This document shows positions 14,348 through 56,939 of a DNA stretch of 64,000 nucleotides, piece by piece. How positions within the stretch are numbered: the first letter of the stretch is position 1; the number at the start of each line of letters is the position of its first letter. Source of the DNA: a virus. The stretch spans positions 35,658 to 99,657 of the IMG/VR virus record IMGVR_UViG_3300044825_002608; one strand, given 5' to 3'. The translations under genes and the position numbers were made by a program. The notes under the pieces are model-generated. The model was not told where the DNA came from and made no database searches. It saw nothing but the letters and a program-made list of their open reading frames with translations.

Positions 14348-16597
14348 ATGACTGCTACTATCGCTCGTCAGCGTGGTGGAAGTAACACTTGGGAACAATT
14401 CTGTGAGTGGGTAACTTCTACCAATAACCGTCTTTATGTCGGTTGGTTTGGAACTCTAATGATTCCTACCCTTCTCGCTGCTACTATTTGTTTCATTGTT
14501 GCTTTCATTGCCGCCCCTCCCGTAGACATACTGCTTTAATCTGTGTCCTTCATCCGTAAGGGTGATGTTAAAACTGGGTGAATTGCTGGAAACCGAAAGG
14601 CAATCAGCAGCCAAGCCTTAGGTACACCTAAGGAAGGTTCAGAGACTACCTGAGGGGTTTAGTCCCCTTAATAACAGGCAAGAGTGCCCAGCCCCTTTAA
14701 TAACTTATAAAGGGTGAAGATATAGTCCAAACTTCACAGAGTAATCTGTAACAACCTAAGTCTTATGATATGGTTGTTTATATGAAGTTGAGACGGGATT
14801 CGTGAACCAGTCGCTGGTTCTCTAATGTATGGAAACAACATCATTTCTGGTGCTGTTGTTCCTAGTTCAAATGCGATTGGATTGCATTCGTAAAGGAGTG
14901 CCTTATATCAGAAATGGTATAAGAAAATCGGGTGAATTGCTGGAAACCTAACCCAGTAAAAGGATAAAAATGTATAAATAATAATATGGAATACACTTTT
15001 ATCCTAATGACTATCTACGAACAGTTTATTGAGTATTGTAAATCAAACAACTTTGATAGTGAGTATTATGAAAAACACCATATTGTCCCAAAACATAATG
15101 GTGGAACTGACGAAAAAGAAAATCTGATTTACTTACCTCCTCATATTCATACACTCGCACATTATTATCGTTGGTTGTCATTTCAGGAAATAGGTGACAA
15201 AGTTGCTTATGAAATGAGATGGAACCAAGATATTAAAAGTGTAAAACTTCGTTCTCAACTTGCTGTTAAAAGTAATAAAGAAAAAGGTAATCTTTTTTGG
15301 AATACTGAATGGCAAAGAGAACAAGGATTAAAGGGTGGAAAAAAAGGAGGTTCTGCTAATACTCAAAACCAGTTTCTTGCCAGACAAAAAGTTGGTAAAA
15401 CTTATGGAAAGCAAGTTGGACTTTCAAGACAAAAAGGTGATTTAGTAGAAATGCTAAAAAACTCAACGACTTGGAAACATAAAACTGGAAAAACTGTTAC
15501 TCTTCCTCCACAAGAAAGTATTACTAAACTTTGTGAGAAACTTCAAAGTATTGAATATTTTGAAACTCCTAACAAAGCTCTTATAGGAAAACTTCTTCGT
15601 GCAGAAAAGAAACAACTTTATGGATGGTCTTTTACTGGTATGGCAATCAGCAGCCAAGTCCCAAGTACACTTGGGAAAGGTTCAGAGACTACCTGAGGAG
15701 TTCAGTCTCCTTAATAACAGGTTTAAGTGCCCGACACCCTCAATTTAGGGTGATGATATAGTCCACACCATATGGAAACTTATGGGTTATGTGTTCTATC
15801 CAATCTGGGAAGCTGCTTCCCTTGATGAATGGCTCTACAACGGTGGTCCTTACCAACTTGTAGTCTTCCACTTCCTTATTGGTATCTATACCTATATGGG
15901 TCGTGAATGGGAACTTTCATACCGTCTAGGTATGCGTCCTTGGATCTGTGTTGCTTACAGTGCTCCCGTCGCTGCTGCTTCTGCTGTGTTCCTGGTCTAT
16001 CCTTTCGGTCAAGGTTCTTTCTCTGATGGTATGCCTCTGGGTATCTCTGGTACTTTCAACTTCATGCTTGTGTTCCAGGCAGAGCACAACATTCTGATGC
16101 ACCCATTCCATATGATGGGCGTGGCTGGCGTATTTGGTGGTTCTCTATTCAGTGCTATGCACGGTTCTCTAGTAACTTCAAGCCTAGTACGAGAAACTAC
16201 CGAAAATGAAAGTCAAAATTATGGTTACAAGTTCGGTCAAGAAGAAGAGACCTACAACATCGTAGCTGCACATGGTTATTTTGGTCGTCTTATCTTCCAA
16301 TATGCTTCGTTCAACAACTCTCGTTCACTGCACTTCTTCCTTGCTGCTTGGCCAGTTGTAGGTATCTGGTTCACTGCTCTTGGTGTAAGCACCATGGCCT
16401 TCAATTTGAACGGAATTAATCTAAATCAGTCTATCCTTGATAGTCAGAATCGTGTTATTAATTCTTGGGCAGATGTGCTAAATCGTGCCAACCTCGGGAT
16501 CGAAGTAATGCACGAAAGGAACGCACATAATTTTCCTCTAGATTTGGCTGCTGTTGAGCACACTCCTGTTGCTCTAACTGCACCTTCTATTGGTTGA
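14348..16597 (+). CDS. psbA: photosystem II D1 protein, three exons: join(14348..14529,14791..14887,15794..16597), 360 aa
   Basis: Spliced length 182+97+804=1083 nt restores AAPPVD-I-DGIREP and IGLH-FYPIWE. D1 motifs are clear throughout. Confidence 0.97.
14530..14790 (+). mobile_element. group I intron 1 in psbA (261 nt, no ORF)
   Basis: Exon ends in U and intron ends in G. P1 GACAU/GUGUC has the U.G wobble. P/Q/R/S cores GAATTGCTGGAAAC, AATCAGCAGCCAAG, GTTCAGAGACTA, GAAGATATAGTCC. Confidence 0.93.
14888..15793 (+). mobile_element. group I intron 2 in psbA, carrying an HNH homing endonuclease
   Basis: P1 GCAUUC/GAGUGC with U.G at the splice site; same P/Q/R/S cores; terminal G precedes TTC TAT CCA. 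Confidence 0.93.
14986..15696 (+). CDS. intron-encoded HNH homing endonuclease (true start may be the ATG at 15007)
   Basis: [12 protein letters not shown]...NLIYL...HTLAH. T4 late promoter TATAAATA at 14973-14980. Confidence 0.88.
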   Translation: MEYTFILMTIYEQFIEYCKSNNFDSEYYEKHHIVPKHNGGTDEKENLIYLPPHIHTLAHYYRWLSFQEIGDKVAYEMRWNQDIKSVKLRSQLAVKSNKEKGNLFWNTEWQREQGLKGGKKGGSANTQNQFLARQKVGKTYGKQVGLSRQKGDLVEMLKNSTTWKHKTGKTVTLPPQESITKLCEKLQSIEYFETPNKALIGKLLRAEKKQLYGWSFTGMAISSQVPSTLGKGSETT

Positions 16598-32900: not shown

Positions 32901-35900
32901 TGTTTTAGCATCAAATGGTGGTTCAACAAGAACTTCAACTGATGCAATTGTTTGGACTTTAAGAACAAGCAATTTCGGTCTTATTTCTAATGCTCAAAGA
33001 AGTTCTGCATTTGGTAATAATACTTTTATTACTGCTGGAAGAATAGGACAACTTCAATCAACAACTTCAAGTATTCTATCCTCACTTGGAAATGGTGCTC
33101 GTTTAAATGTTTCTACGAATGGTATTTCTTGGTCGATAAGAACCACAGGACAAGGATTAGTTAGAATCAATAAACTCACTGCTGGTTCTTCTTATCTTGC
33201 TGCTGGTAGTGATTATATTTCAAATCCTGGTGTGATAATTGCTTCAACAGATAACATCACCTGGACTTTAAGAACTGCTGGTGTTTATGGAAATAGCATT
33301 ACTTCACTTTATGCTGATAGTTCTAGGTATTTGATTGGTGGTTTAAGTCCTGTTGTGAGTTGGACTTTAAGAACTTCTGGTTTTGGTGCAAGTCTTATAC
33401 TTGGACTAACTTATGGGAATAATCTTTATGTTGCTGGTGGTAATGGTGGAGTTCTAAACACTTCAACAGACGCAATCACTTGGACTCAAAGAACTTCTGG
33501 ATTTGGAGTAAGTCAAATAAGAGGACTTACTTATGGAAACAATCTTTATATTGCTGTTGGTGATAGTGGAACTTTAAACACTTCAACAGACTCTATTAGT
33601 TGGACACAAAGAACATCAGGATTTGGTTCAAGTCAAATTGTTACAATTGCTTATGGAAATAATCTTTATGTTGCTAGTGGTTTTAATGGAGCACTAACAA
33701 CTTCAACAGATGCAATTACTTGGGAATTAAGAACTTCTGGTACAACAGTAGGATTATATGGATTAAATTATCTAAACAATCTTTATCTTGTAGGTTCTAC
33801 TACTAGAGTATTTGCATCAACAGACGCAATTACTTGGGAAGCAAGAACATCTGGAATATCTTCTGGAATTGTTCGTTCTTTTGTTTATGCAAATGGTAGA
33901 TATCTTTATGCTGCTGGTGCCCTTGCTGTTGGAGGTGGAATTGCATCTTCAACAGACTCTATTACTTGGGAATTAAGAACATCAGGTCTTGGTACTAGTG
34001 GTCCTATTGCACTTACTTATGCAAACAATCTTTATGTTGCTGGTGGTATTGCTGGTGTCTTAGCAACTTCAACAGACTCCATTACTTGGAGTTCAAGAAC
34101 TTCTGGATTTGGTACAAGTGTTATATATTCACTTCTTTATGCAAACAATCTCTATGTTGCTGGTGGTGATAATGGAACTCTAACCACAGCAACCTACTCA
34201 CAACTCACCAATCTAGGTAATGGAGCACTTCTATCAACCTCTACTGATACCATCACCTGGAATATAAGAACTTCAATACCAAATGTTCAACAAGTAGATT
34301 CAATTACTTCAAGTCCTTCACTTTATCTTGCTGCATTTAGTGATTATAATTCCAATAGTACCTTAGCAGTTTCCACGGATACGATTTCTTGGACTGCAAG
34401 AACATCAGGATTTGGACTTACAACCATTCGTACAGTCACTTTCGGTAATAATCTTTATGTTGTTGCTGGTGATACTGGTATTCTTAACACTTCCACAGAT
34501 ACCATCACCTGGACATTAAGAACTTCAAGTCTCTCAACATCCATTACAGCACTTGATTTTGGCAATAATCTTTATAGTGCTTCTGATACTTCTGGTACAA
34601 ATCTTATTTCCACAGATGGAATTACTTGGATTGCAAGAACATCAGGTATTCCAGCAACAATTAATAATGTTGCATATGGAAATAATACTTATGTTGCAGC
34701 AGCAAACTCTGGATATACCGCATCAGGAACTTATGCATCTCTTACAAATCTTGGAGATGGTGCAACACTTCTCACTTCAACAAATGGTATTGCTTGGACT
34801 TTAAGAACCACAGGAACCAACACTCAAAGTATCAATCGAAAAGGATTGGTTTATGGTGGTAACTCTTACCTCACTTATGGTACTGATTATCTTAACCAAT
34901 TCTTCTTATCAGCATCCACAGATAGTATCACTTGGACTTTAAGAACCTCTGGTATTGATAGTCTCACAACTCTACAATCAGTTTCTTATGGAAACAATCT
35001 TTATATTCTTGGAGCAAATAATGGAATTATCAGCACTTCCACAGATACAATCACTTGGACTTTAAGAACATCAGGATTTGGTGGAGTAAATGTAAATGAT
35101 GTTGAATACTTAAATGGTACTTATGTTGCTGTTGGTGATGTTGGAACGATTACAACATCAACAGATTCTATTGCTTGGACTTATCGAATTAATCCAACCA
35201 ATCTTAACTATCAGTCTGTTAGATATTTGAATGACTTATATGTTGTTATGGGTGATAGTGGTTTATTAGTTACTTCAACGGATGCAGTTGTTTGGTCGAT
35301 TCGTACTTCAAATCTTTCACAAACGATTTGGACATCAGGATTTGGTGCAAGTACTTATGTTCTTGGTGGTGGTTTAGGACAGATTGCAACCTCACAATAT
35401 GTAAGTAAGAAATCAAACTGGACTTCTTTAACTTCTACCAATAGTACTGCAATCACTTATAAAGGAACACAAGAGTTTACATTACCAATTCCACAAACCT
35501 TCTATGTTCCACCAACTGCATCAACTTTTTATATTGAAGCAATTGGTGCAGGTGGTGGTGGAGCATCAGGAAGAGATAGTGGAACATTAGGTTCTGGTGG
35601 TGGTGGAGGTTCTGGTGCTTATAATGCTTGGTTAATACGAAGACCCGAACTTGGTGATGCAACAACACTTACAGTGACTCCTGGTTCTGCTGGAAGTGGC
35701 GGAAGAAGCACTAAACCTTTATGGACAAGTACTGATGCAATCACTTGGACTTTAAGAACTTCTGCTGGATTTGGTACAACAGGTGTTCTTGCACTTACTT
35801 ATGGAAACAATCTTTATGTTGCTGCTGGTGATACTATAAACACTTCAACAGATGGAATTACTTGGACTTTAAGAACTTCTGGATTTGGCACAAGTTTAAT

Positions 35901-54225: not shown

Positions 54226-56304
54226 ATGGGCTTTGCCGATCTTAAAAAACAATCAAAACTTGGTTCCTTGACTGCTAAACTAGTCAAGGAAGTAGAAAAA
54301 ATGAATACTACTGGAGGATCTTCTGATGATCGTCTCTGGAAACTAGAATGCGATAAAAGTGGCAATGGATATGCTGTAATTCGCTTCCTACCCGCACCTG
54401 AGGGAGAAGATCTACCTTTTGTAAAGGTATACTCTCATGCTTTCCAAGGTCCTGGTGGTTGGTATATTGAGAACAGTCTTACCACTCTGGGACAAAAAGA
54501 CCCTGTATCTGAGCACAATACTCTACTCTGGAACAATGGCACTGATGCAGGTAAAGAACAAGCACGTAAGCAGAAGCGTAAACTAACTTATGTTAGTAAT
54601 ATTTACGTTGTAAAAGATCCTGTCAATCCAGAGAACGAAGGTAAAGTATTCCTTTAATTTTTAAAGAGGCATATAGTAGTAATACTATATGAAAACCAAG
54701 TGAATTGCTGGAAACTCTTGTTAGGTAAACTGACTAAAACAGATTCACTGTGAAAGAAAACTGTTCTTTTATAAATAGTTTTATATAAAAGAACACATAT
54801 GAATAAATTGTACTGTGATTTAGATGGAAAATACTATTCTAAAGTGGGAATAGTTCGAATAATAAAAAAATTCGGATTAGAACCAAAAAATTATTATGAT
54901 GAACACTTTAAACTAAATTCTGAAGGCATATGTCCTAACTGTGGAAATTTTACAAAATTTACAAAATTTTCTTATCGTAAGTTTTGCAATTCTAAGTGTT
55001 CTTCTCAGTATAATAAAAATGCTGAGAAAATGTGGAAAAATTCTTCTGAGGAGGATAAGAAATCCATAGTAAGTAAAATGTTGAATACTCGGTTTTCAAA
55101 TAATTCAAAAGAAGATATTGAAAAGAAAAGAGTAGCAACTTTACTTAAAAATACAGGATTTTCCTCTTACTCTGAATTTATTTCGCATCATAAAAAAGAA
55201 TGGTACAAAAGTTTAACTGAAGAAGAATATAATCAATTCTTCGACAATATAACTAAGTCTAGAAATCAATACAAATATCATATGTATACACTGAATGGTA
55301 TACAGGTTCGCACTCAGGGATATGAAAAATATGTCCTTGATGTTCTAACCAAGTATTTTGACAATACAAAAATTAAAGTAGATAGTAAAATATCAATAAG
55401 ATATAAAGATACTAACGGAAAAACAAAACGTTATTATCCAGATATCATAATAGATAATTTACTTTTTGAAGTTAAATCTTCATATACTTTAAAAATACAT
55501 AAAAATAATGTATTGTTAAAAATGGAAGCATCTAAAAATGCAGGATACATACCATTTCTAGTTGTATGGGAACCTAAAGAATCTGAAATGTGTAAAAACA
55601 GTTTAATAGAGACAATCAGCAGCCAAGACCTATCACAGAAGGTAAGGTTCAACGACTATCCGTTTATCGGAGTAGGTTATAAGCAAATGATAACCGAAGT
55701 GCTTGGAATCCATTCAAATGGATTATGATATAGTCTGTTCTATATTGAGAAATATAGCTGAATAAGATCGGGATTGGACTTGCGAACCAATCTGAACATA
55801 AAGTTTAAATACGGTAAAAAAATCTTTGACAAACTTACTGCCGCAATGCAACCCGAGTTTGAGGATGAAGAAGCAATTGATCCCTTTGACTTCTGGAAGG
55901 GTGCTAACTTCAAACTGAAAGCGAAGAATGTTGCTGGTTATCGTAACTATGATTCTAGTGAGTTTGCTTCTGCTGGTGCTCTTCTTGATGATGACGATGA
56001 ACTTGAAGCAATCTGGAAGCGTCAATATTCTCTTGCTGAATTTGTTTCTCCCGATCAGTTCAAATCTTATGAAGAACTGAAAAAGCGTCTTGATTATGTT
56101 CTTGGTAACAAAGGTACTCCACGTTATCAAGATCCTGAAGTTGAAGATGAAGAGGACTATCGTGGTCCTGCTCCAAGTCTGGACGAAGACCTTCGCACTG
56201 AACTCAACAATCTTCAACCCACTCGTCGTGTTGCGGTTGATGAAGATGATGAGGACGCTGATGATACGTTGCAATATTTTGCTCGCCTTGCCTCAGACGA
56301 CTGA
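54226..56304 (+). CDS. gp32: single-stranded DNA-binding protein gp32, two exons: join(54226..54654,55804..56304), 309 aa
   Basis: DDRLW, GNGYAVIRFLP, and NEGKVFL|FKYGKKIFDK restored by splicing; acidic C-terminal tail. Confidence 0.93.
54655..55803 (+). mobile_element. group I intron in gp32 with an endonuclease ORF
   Basis: Exon ends CUU, P1 CCUU/GAGG, terminal G; cores GAATTGCTGGAAAC, AATCAGCAGCCAAG, GTTCAACGACTA, GATATAGTCT. Confidence 0.9.
54799..55728 (+). CDS. intron-encoded putative PD-(D/E)XK homing endonuclease with an N-terminal Cys cluster
   Basis: CPNCG...FCNSKCS; RYYPDIIIDNLLFEVKS. Late promoter TATAAATA at 54770-54777. Confidence 0.8.
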   Translation: MNKLYCDLDGKYYSKVGIVRIIKKFGLEPKNYYDEHFKLNSEGICPNCGNFTKFTKFSYRKFCNSKCSSQYNKNAEKMWKNSSEEDKKSIVSKMLNTRFSNNSKEDIEKKRVATLLKNTGFSSYSEFISHHKKEWYKSLTEEEYNQFFDNITKSRNQYKYHMYTLNGIQVRTQGYEKYVLDVLTKYFDNTKIKVDSKISIRYKDTNGKTKRYYPDIIIDNLLFEVKSSYTLKIHKNNVLLKMEASKNAGYIPFLVVWEPKESEMCKNSLIETISSQDLSQKVRFNDYPFIGVGYKQMITEVLGIHSNGL

Positions 56305-56321
56305 TTCTGTGCTATAATACT

Positions 56322-56348
56322 GGGGAGGCAATGGTCTCCCCCTTTTTT
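56322..56348 (+). terminator. gp32 terminator
   Basis: GGGGAGGC-AATG-GTCTCCCC followed by a T tract. Confidence 0.75.
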
Positions 56349-56939
56349 ATGAAATCTGATTATCATATTGACCGAATCACAAAGAAGCAGGCAGAAGAAC
56401 TTCTTTTAACCCATCATTATCTTAAAGATTTTTCTAAGGGATACAAATCTGGATATAACTATGGTTTGTTTAAAAAGAATGATTTTTCACCTTTGAATAT
56501 TGGTGGTCCTGTGGGGGTCGTAATTTTTACTGGATTGTCAGTCCCAGAAATCGCAAAAGGAGCATTTGGACTTGAAAGAAATCAACAATAAGGACTTTTT
56601 GAACTTTCACGACTTTGTATACACCCTGGAACTCAGCAAGAAGAATACAATATTACTTCCTGGTTTGTATCCCGTTGTATCAAACAACTACGCAAAGAAA
56701 CAATCGTTAGGGCTATTATTTCTTATGCTGATTCAGATTTTCACAATGGTACTATTTACCGTGCTTGTAACTTTAAATATTGTGGACTTACTGACCCCAA
56801 AAAAGATTTTTACTATTCTGATGGAACCAAACATTCAAGAGGTAAAGTAAAAGGTGCCGAGGGAGAATGGAAAGAACGCTCCCGCAAGCACCGTTATGTT
56901 ATGATGTTTGATAAAACTTTAAATCTTTTATGGATTTAG
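56349..56939 (+). pseudogene. Mom-like (GNAT-fold) DNA modification gene interrupted by an in-frame TAA at 56589-56591
   Basis: HHYL...GVVIF | stop | FELSRLC...ISYADSDFHNGTIYRACNF continues in the same frame to a TAG. Confidence 0.75.

Follow-up and report, generated by a model that had tools for sequence, protein, structure and literature searches.

A putative mobile group I intron with a DUF7487 nuclease gene in gp32 of a T4-like virus contig

The gene gp32 of a T4-like virus contig is very probably interrupted by a mobile group I intron of subgroup IA that carries the gene of a homing nuclease. The element lies at positions 54655-55803 of a 64,000-nucleotide (nt) stretch of DNA, referred to here as the window, which covers positions 35,658 to 99,657 of the IMG/VR virus record IMGVR_UViG_3300044825_002608. 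Splicing of the transcript and DNA cleavage by the encoded protein are both predicted from sequence. The source contig measures 99.7 kb, with a completeness of ~47%, and its gene content and nearest DNA matches place it with the T4-like Synechococcus phages. On it, gp32 follows the late-transcription coactivator and helicase-loader genes.

The split gp32 gene and the ribozyme core

Both parts of gp32 (Table 1) are recognized by family profiles. Exon 1 matches positions 1-108 of the 208 positions of the Pfam gp32 family (E 1.7e-21) and positions 1-144 of PHROG 224; exon 2 matches positions 108-207 (E 2.3e-19) and 144-317, respectively. The insert divides the PHROG 224 profile at position 144 of 318. 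When aligned with the intact gp32 of S-CREM1 and Sf-FS3, the exon halves abut with zero gap or overlap, NEGKVFL being followed directly by FKYGKKIFDK. The reading frame joined across CTT/TTT gives NEGKVFLFKYGKK, and the length of the joined protein equals that of intact gp32. At the nucleotide level, the exon junction connects GTATTCCTT with TTTAAATAC, and the corresponding intron-less site lies around GGTAAAGTATTCCTTTTTAAATACGGTAAA. An earlier interpretation made from the letters of the DNA, hereafter the sequence-only reading, had placed the junction at CTT/TTT, and the seamless alignment agrees with it. Exon 2 has at the junction neither a start codon of its own nor a ribosome-binding site. 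A second gp32 was not found on the contig, the split copy being the sole one.

The insert can be folded into the helices of a group I ribozyme, and all pairs of the proposed helix model are standard pairs in the window sequence. P1 contains the internal guide sequence and a splice-site wobble, U54654.G54666, which is a U.G pair in 11 of 11 sequences. The 3' splice site follows a terminal G (G55803) and yields a junction that preserves the reading frame. The conserved core comprises the P3-P8 and P4-P6 domains together with P7 and its joining segment J8/7, with support from covariation. The 5' strand of P4 is embedded in the hallmark AAUUGCUGGAAAC, which spans J3/4, P4, and J4/5. The presence of P7.1 and P7.2 between P7 and P3' marks the intron as a member of subgroup IA.

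Covariation was evaluated in an alignment of 17 relatives, comprising 89 pairs and 1224 cells, with partners slid by 1-3 columns and shuffles as controls. Standard pairs occupied 94.6% of the cells, versus 31-43% in the slid controls. Changes on both sides were observed in 37 of the 89 pairs, versus 9-20 in slid and 18.9 +/- 2.6 in shuffled alignments, and the covariation score reached 0.231, versus at most 0.045 in the controls. Compensatory changes are present in P2 (8 of 9 pairs), P3 (three pairs), the inner stem of P6 (3 of 4, with 100% of the cells paired), P8 (4 of 5), P9 (4 of 6), and P9.1 (6 of 9), as well as in P7.1 and P7.2, while P4 and P7 are invariant. The 4-bp P5 and a small P5a hairpin are weakly supported, as they lack compensatory changes and their register is shifted in the more distant relatives. 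The minimum free energy (MFE) fold of L011, a natural relative with an intron of 516 nt, independently recovered P1-P6, P7.1, P7.2, P8, P9, and P9.1. Covariation and this fold bear out the claim of the sequence-only reading that a group I intron, predicted to splice, occupies 54655-55803.

The Rfam group I model RF00028 recognized the 3' core (55505-55757) at 47.3 bits, the E value being 1.5e-10 for the local search and 2.4e-12 when the contig was searched. The 3' half of this alignment is good and includes P4', P6, GGUUCAACGACUA, GAUAUAGUC, and P9, with GAUAUAGUC in agreement with the consensus. The placement of P3-P5 inside the open reading frame (ORF) of the intron was rejected, as it contains many non-pairs; the real strands lie upstream of the ORF. 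Relatives scored 43.8-59.2 bits, L037 being above the cut-off of the model.

According to the mechanism proposed, the gp32 pre-mRNA would fold into the ribozyme, in which P1 would pair CCUU with GAGG and define the cut at U54654.G54666. Two transesterifications would then excise the intron after G55803 and join the exons, restoring the message for full-length gp32. By analogy with known homing systems, the two-part enzyme would cut the intron-less gp32 of co-infecting phages near the conserved motif, and repair from the intron-bearing copy would spread the intron (homing).

Table 1. Coordinates in the window of the gp32 intron, its exons and helices, and the two psbA introns
Feature	Position	Strand	Details
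gp32 exon 1	54226-54654	+	143 codons, ending GTA TTC CTT; aligned with intact gp32
Group I intron	54655-55803	+	1149 nt; first base U after exon base U54654, last base G55803
P1	54651-54669	+	CCUU and intron U (54651-54655) paired with guide AGAGG (54665-54669)
P10 candidate	54660-54665	+	UUUAAA, able to form pairs with exon 2 bases 1-6
P2 hairpin	54670-54691	+	9 bp, GUAA loop
P3, P4, and P5 5' strands	54696-54718	+	whole region
P3 5' strand	54696-54702	+	CCAAGUG; partner 55700-55706
P4 5' strand	54706-54711	+	partner 55616-55621
P5 5' strand	54715-54718	+	partner 55608-55611
Hairpin upstream of ORF	54763-54794	+	ends 4 nt before AUG
TATAAATA	54770-54777	+	T4-type late-promoter motif, inside hairpin
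Intron ORF	54799-55728	+	309 amino acids, in P5 loop
Dual-coding stretch	55603-55728	+	last ~42 codons, LIETISSQ...RFNDYPFIGVGYKQMITEVLGIHSNGL and stop
P5'	55608-55611	+	
P4'	55616-55621	+	
P6	55622-55648	+	outer and inner stems
P7 5' strand	55654-55658	+	
P7.1	55659-55671	+	
P7.2	55675-55695	+	
P3'	55700-55706	+	
P8	55709-55722	+	
J8/7		+	holds UGA 55726-55728
P7 3' strand	55731-55735	+	
P9	55740-55757	+	
P9.1	55768-55795	+	
3' tail		+	CAUAAAG, ending at G55803
gp32 exon 2	55804-56304	+	166 codons and stop, starting TTT AAA TAC GGT
psbA group I intron	14520-14751		RF00028 84.1 bits
psbA group I intron	15510-15785		RF00028 53.4 bits
psbA intron 2 HNH ORF	14986-15696		in P5 loop, behind TATAAATA at 14973-14980

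The intron-encoded DUF7487 protein

The protein encoded in the P5 loop is composed of an N-terminal region with four cysteines, a helical middle part, a PD-(D/E)XK domain at residues ~156-275, and a tail read from the ribozyme core. It belongs to the Pfam family DUF7487 (PF24308; 53.8 bits, E 3.3e-14, cut-off 27; 54.3 bits in the genome search). Weaker matches were obtained with PHROG 3339, annotated as 'homing endonuclease' (E 2.2e-5), and with the Pfam families TnsA_N (E 0.006) and PDDEXK_3 (E 0.084). DUF7487 is a large family, with 6928 clusters at 50% identity for E <= 0.001 and 3367 for E <= 1e-10, and its members are viral wherever the taxon is known. Eight residues are invariant in 29 homologues. 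Four of them, C45, C48, C63, and C67, form the N-terminal cysteine cluster, which is probably a zinc-finger-like region; the other four, E176, D215 (in YYPD), and E224 and K226 (in EVK), constitute the classical PD-(D/E)XK signature.

An AlphaFold (AF2) model built on the 29 homologues reached a mean predicted local distance difference test (pLDDT) value of 85. In comparisons with VIA-align, residues ~156-300 of the model fit nucleases of the PD-(D/E)XK fold, with structural Z scores of 9.0 for Vsr (112 amino acids, root-mean-square deviation 3.3), 8.2 for TnsA, 7.2 for I-Bth0305I (3r3p, catalytic domain), and 6.3 for Hjc; Z scores of 7-9 are in the range where fold alone, not function, is demonstrated. 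Foldseek returned weak matches in the PDB (E >= 0.009), but PD-(D/E)XK nucleases were enriched among them, and a family-profile search of the PDB sequences gave nothing at E <= 1. Both the core fold and the E...PD...(D/E)xK pattern of the PD-(D/E)XK superfamily have thus been found. The EDxHD signature has not: the invariant columns give E...PD...ExK, and 3r3p was not reached at E <= 1. The sequence-only reading had described the ORF as neither GIY-YIG nor HNH, with a cysteine cluster and PD...EVK, and the fold matches and invariant residues confirm this description. As its gene lies in a mobile intron that shows signs of horizontal spread, the protein is predicted to be a homing endonuclease.

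The end of this ORF serves two purposes. Its last codons coincide with P5', P4', P6, the 5' strand of P7, P7.1, P7.2, P3', P8, and part of J8/7, and the stop codon of the ORF is the UGA within J8/7. The ORF had been said to run through the Q and R elements of the ribozyme, and it does cover both P4' ('Q') and the 5' strand of P7 ('R'); the dual coding claimed along with it is conserved across the family. No part of the protein is better conserved than this tail, LIETISSQ..RFNDYPFIGVGYKQMI.EVLG, even when two proteins share 40% identity over the rest. Constraint on the RNA drives this conservation, because the variable residues of the tail sit on covarying stems, because in the wider DUF7487 family most proteins have no tail and terminate near profile position 263, and because an ORF-less intron, L026, translates into a similar peptide. 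The latter is a group I intron (positions 2313-2637, 83.7 bits) on an unrelated metagenome contig, and its peptide is 56% identical to the tail. In some lineages translation stops earlier, in the P7.2 loop in P0042 and P0049 and in P7.1 in the ORF of a second gp32 intron, and the distal tail is therefore dispensable. An ISSQ-type tail is found in 45 of the 150 best DUF7487 representatives. Endonuclease genes have been reported to take their distal coding region often from the intron core (PMC2677866).

DNA patterns based on the tail, DYPFIGV(G) and LIETIS(SQ), were also matched by ~260 metagenome and ~40 viral stretches that do not encode a relative of the ORF. They are probably additional introns that have this core in common and contain a different ORF or lack one.

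A hairpin is located immediately upstream of the ORF. Its MFE is -10.2 kcal/mol (z -3.3), none of 200 shuffles was equally stable, and its 3' strand carries a purine-rich stretch 5-11 nt ahead of the AUG. The hairpin includes TATAAATA, which most relatives, some of them at ~40% identity, retain ahead of the ORF, and which is called a putative late promoter because of this position and conservation. In T4, intron endonuclease genes combine a late promoter with a hairpin hiding the ribosome-binding site, I-TevI being the model (PMC2988022). By analogy, the hairpin and TATAAATA might control the timing of endonuclease synthesis, a proposal less certain than splicing or mobility. In early gp32 transcripts, the hairpin would mask the ribosome-binding region of the ORF and the RNA would splice. 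Initiation at the late promoter inside the hairpin would produce a transcript that is devoid of P1-P5 and of the 5' strand of the hairpin, unable to splice, and open to translation. Because the last ~42 codons are at the same time the core, one RNA could not carry a translating ribosome on the ORF and keep its ribozyme folded; the overlap would thus make such a separation of early splicing and late translation necessary.

Distribution, insertion registers, and competing readings

The intron has been found in ~25 independent metagenomic loci, of marine as well as freshwater origin, with 40-94% amino acid identity, and because it recurs in this number of independent loci the arrangement is not due to chance. 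Every homologue with a readable context lies in gp32; the contexts comprise 10 IMG/VR loci, 10 loci from metagenomes, with freshwater contigs and two Global Ocean Sampling reads among them, and further IMG/VR loci. In isolates the situation is different: gp32 occurs in two separated pieces in none of the 2470 isolate phage records matching gp32 (2470 places), and the intron ORF has no tblastn match in 50,697 isolate phage records. A distant-mode blastn search of the same 50,697 records with the whole intron gave short generic core matches, which belong to introns of unrelated phages (Staphylococcus, Serratia, Bacillus, and others), and none in cyanophage gp32. Nothing relevant on a gp32 intron or on DUF7487 was found in a literature search that covered few subscription papers. 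The supposition that gp32 had not been described as an intron host therefore holds within the literature searched and the 2470 isolate records.

The intron appears to have moved recently. Compared with two relatives (L004 and L005), the DNA identity is 70% in the exons, 95% in the intron, and 94% in the ORF; an intron more alike than its exons is the pattern predicted by recent horizontal transfer. Decayed versions have also been identified. The 516-nt introns of L011 and L012 lack codons 1-192, that of L042 (1883-2121) is nearly ORF-less, and a contig assembled from an RNA library (run X2) has a gap of 422 nt in the ORF. The ribozyme parts are retained in all of them.

Four IMG/VR contigs (L040, L041, L042, and L043) begin or end inside the gp32 intron. 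The shared, highly similar intron may break the assemblies of related phages at gp32.

The insertion point is not the same in all relatives. By applying the U.G rule and requiring a terminal G and a preserved reading frame, three registers within an 11-nt stretch were assigned. In register 0, the type of the window, GTA TTC CTT/TTT AAA is combined with the guide GAGG. In register -5 nt (L022, L039, L024, and L025), the junction is GTG T/TT TTA TTC and the guide GCAC matches exon GUGU, and in register +6 nt (L023 and L037), the junction is TTC CGT/TAC GGT and the guide GCGG(AA) matches exon (UU)CCGU. All three restore the motif GKVFLFKYGKK at the same length. The ORFs of the -5 and +6 lineages are ~40% identical to that of the window, and the cores are clearly homologous. 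A second gp32 intron is inserted after residue ~95 in L008, L009, L016 (1025-2212), and L020 (RF00028, 30.7 bits), so that gp32 consists of three exons in relatives possessing it. It encodes its own DUF7487 protein of 312 amino acids, 27-29% identical, which reads AISSQ into the core.

The window itself contains two more group I introns, in psbA. P4', P6, and P7 encode the C-terminus of the HNH protein of psbA intron 2, AISSQ...GSETT and stop, and the frame used is that of the gp32 intron ORF, although the HNH and gp32 intron nucleases are unrelated. A fixed-frame ISSQ tail, continued by a peptide derived from P7, is thus common to a large DUF7487 clade and to an unrelated psbA HNH gene, which would favor a selected overlap over an accident. 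Taken together, it is possible, albeit doubtful, that the registers record shifts of the splice site through changes of 4-6 nt in the guide and that the overlap with the core is a selected docking or regulatory arrangement. Such shifts could have come about by reverse splicing or by imprecise repair, and the overlap may render translation and splicing mutually exclusive rather than reflect the chance position of the first stop.

Among the competing readings, the one that survives best accepts the splicing intron and disputes its enzyme, supposing that the ORF product is no longer a homing nuclease, as would be the case for a decaying gene or a maturase. Endonuclease genes decay often, and have done so in some of the loci found here, and the C-terminal tail is dictated by the RNA. 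The window ORF, however, is full length, its four catalytic residues and four cysteines are invariant among the 29 homologues, and the DNA identity of 94% in the ORF, against 70% in the exons, points to recent spread and not to decay, which makes a non-nuclease improbable. A second possibility is a dead intron relic in a gp32 pseudogene, with a working gp32 on the unsequenced half of the genome. The incompleteness of the contig and an Rfam score under the cut-off would fit such a relic, but both exons are intact, conserved, and in the usual gene order after the helicase loader, the helices have been maintained by compensatory change across lineages, and a single gp32, split in the same way, is also found in relatives on other contigs; a relic is accordingly very improbable. 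Least probable is a gp32 that is truly in pieces, in which a nuclease gene has been inserted and the halves are made as separate, assembling proteins: an in-frame TAA at 54655-54657 ends exon 1, a TTG-started frame from 55774 covers exon 2, and a precedent in T4-like phages, NrdA of Aeromonas phage Aeh1 split by mobE, is described in PMC2988022 and PMC2677866, yet the insert shows the covariation of a ribozyme and has a P1, a P10, and a terminal G that match, the TTG is part of helix P9.1 and lacks a ribosome-binding site, a guide that follows the exon in three registers is sensible only with RNA splicing, and ORF-less versions of the insert retain the ribozyme. An intein was also considered and rejected, as the ORF is out of frame with gp32 and TAA directly follows exon 1.

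The reading as a spliced mobile intron is nevertheless opposed by several observations. Since the contig is less than half complete, an intact second gp32 might be situated elsewhere in the genome. The RF00028 gathering score of 50 bits is missed by 2.7 bits in the window and the 5' half of the Rfam model is misaligned, both of which are explained by the position of the ORF in the P5 loop. As regards timing, TATAAATA is not enriched across the window (10 found versus 7.7 expected), L023 has ATTAAATA in its place, the motif is elsewhere in L037, and no clear Shine-Dalgarno sequence was found ahead of the ORF. Finally, an RNA-library contig joining an exon-1-like end, GTTTTCCTT, to 55804 may represent an intron-less relative, as such contigs do not allow spliced RNA to be distinguished from DNA carry-over or from relatives that lack the intron. 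Three metatranscriptome runs contain small shares (0.05-0.07) of the sampled words, and the RNA-library contigs are relatives mostly below 90% identity, with a few at 90-99%; one contains the intron and one has a partly deleted ORF.

Known systems and significance

The kind of element described here is well known; the gp32 host and the DUF7487 enzyme family are new within the literature and records searched. The closest parallels are the mobile introns of T4, which likewise reside in DNA-metabolism genes of a T4-like phage, carry an endonuclease gene in a peripheral loop, and are regulated by a late-promoter motif and a hairpin over the ORF start (PMC2988022). In contrast to these, the host gene is gp32, which is absent among the T4-like intron hosts listed in PMC2988022 and PMC2993671, the enzyme has a PD-(D/E)XK fold instead of being GIY-YIG or HNH, and the ORF in the P5 loop overlaps the catalytic core by ~42 codons. 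Gene 32 of T4 is also a target of homing, by SegG (PMC2988022, Table 1), but SegG is encoded by a free-standing GIY-YIG gene adjoining gene 32, and no intron is involved.

Two families of homing enzymes with a PD-(D/E)XK fold have been reported, and, judging from the predicted model, the resemblance to both is probably one of fold only. I-Ssp6803I, from a group I intron in a cyanobacterial tRNA-fMet gene, is cited in PMC2677866 as the first PD-(D/E)XK homing case. It shares with the present protein the class of enzyme, the encoding intron, and the cyanobacterial setting, whereas the host gene differs and the gp32 intron enzyme is larger, with a four-cysteine N-terminal region. I-Ssp6803I gave no PDB sequence match at E <= 1 and is not among the 50 structural matches listed. 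The I-Bth0305I/Vsr-like ('EDxHD') enzymes are similar in nuclease fold and two-domain build, in their occurrence in phage recombination and replication genes and in marine metagenomes, and in ORFs that make use of the intron core (PMC2677866). They differ in their signature, which is E...PD...ExK here, in the lack of a match at the sequence level, and in the location of their ORFs in the P1 loop of recA introns (PMC2677866).

The psbA introns of cyanophages, of the S-PM2 type and the two of the window, occur in the same phage group and have a very similar core, AAUUGCUGGAAAC...AAUCAGCAGCCAAG...GGUUCA.AGACUA. The psbA intron 2 of the window is the most similar in layout, having a nuclease ORF in the P5 loop behind TATAAATA that reads into P4'-P7, but the host gene is different and its nuclease is HNH. 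The psbA intron of S-PM2 is ORF-less and depends on a free-standing enzyme (Zeng et al. 2009, cited in PMC2993671).

Should splicing be confirmed, the few known intron hosts of T4-like phages would be joined by a core replication gene, and the supply of gp32 would depend on RNA splicing. Phages need this protein abundantly in replication, recombination, and repair. In T4 it is also required for intron homing itself (PMC2988022), and the selfish element would therefore be sitting in a gene whose product should be needed for its own spread. DUF7487, a large virus-only family of unknown function, would gain a likely role in intron homing, and its enzyme would represent a further homing lineage with the PD-(D/E)XK fold, whose target is conserved and easily synthesised. 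The three registers and the twin-intron alleles provide natural material on how introns change their site. The use of gp32 (g32) as a phage marker gives these introns a practical side: at two sites and with 0.3-1.2 kb, they would disrupt gene calling and maybe assembly.

Just 3' of gp32, at 56331-56850, two ORFs of 86 and 94 amino acids overlap in different frames; they may be one frameshifted gene or two small genes.

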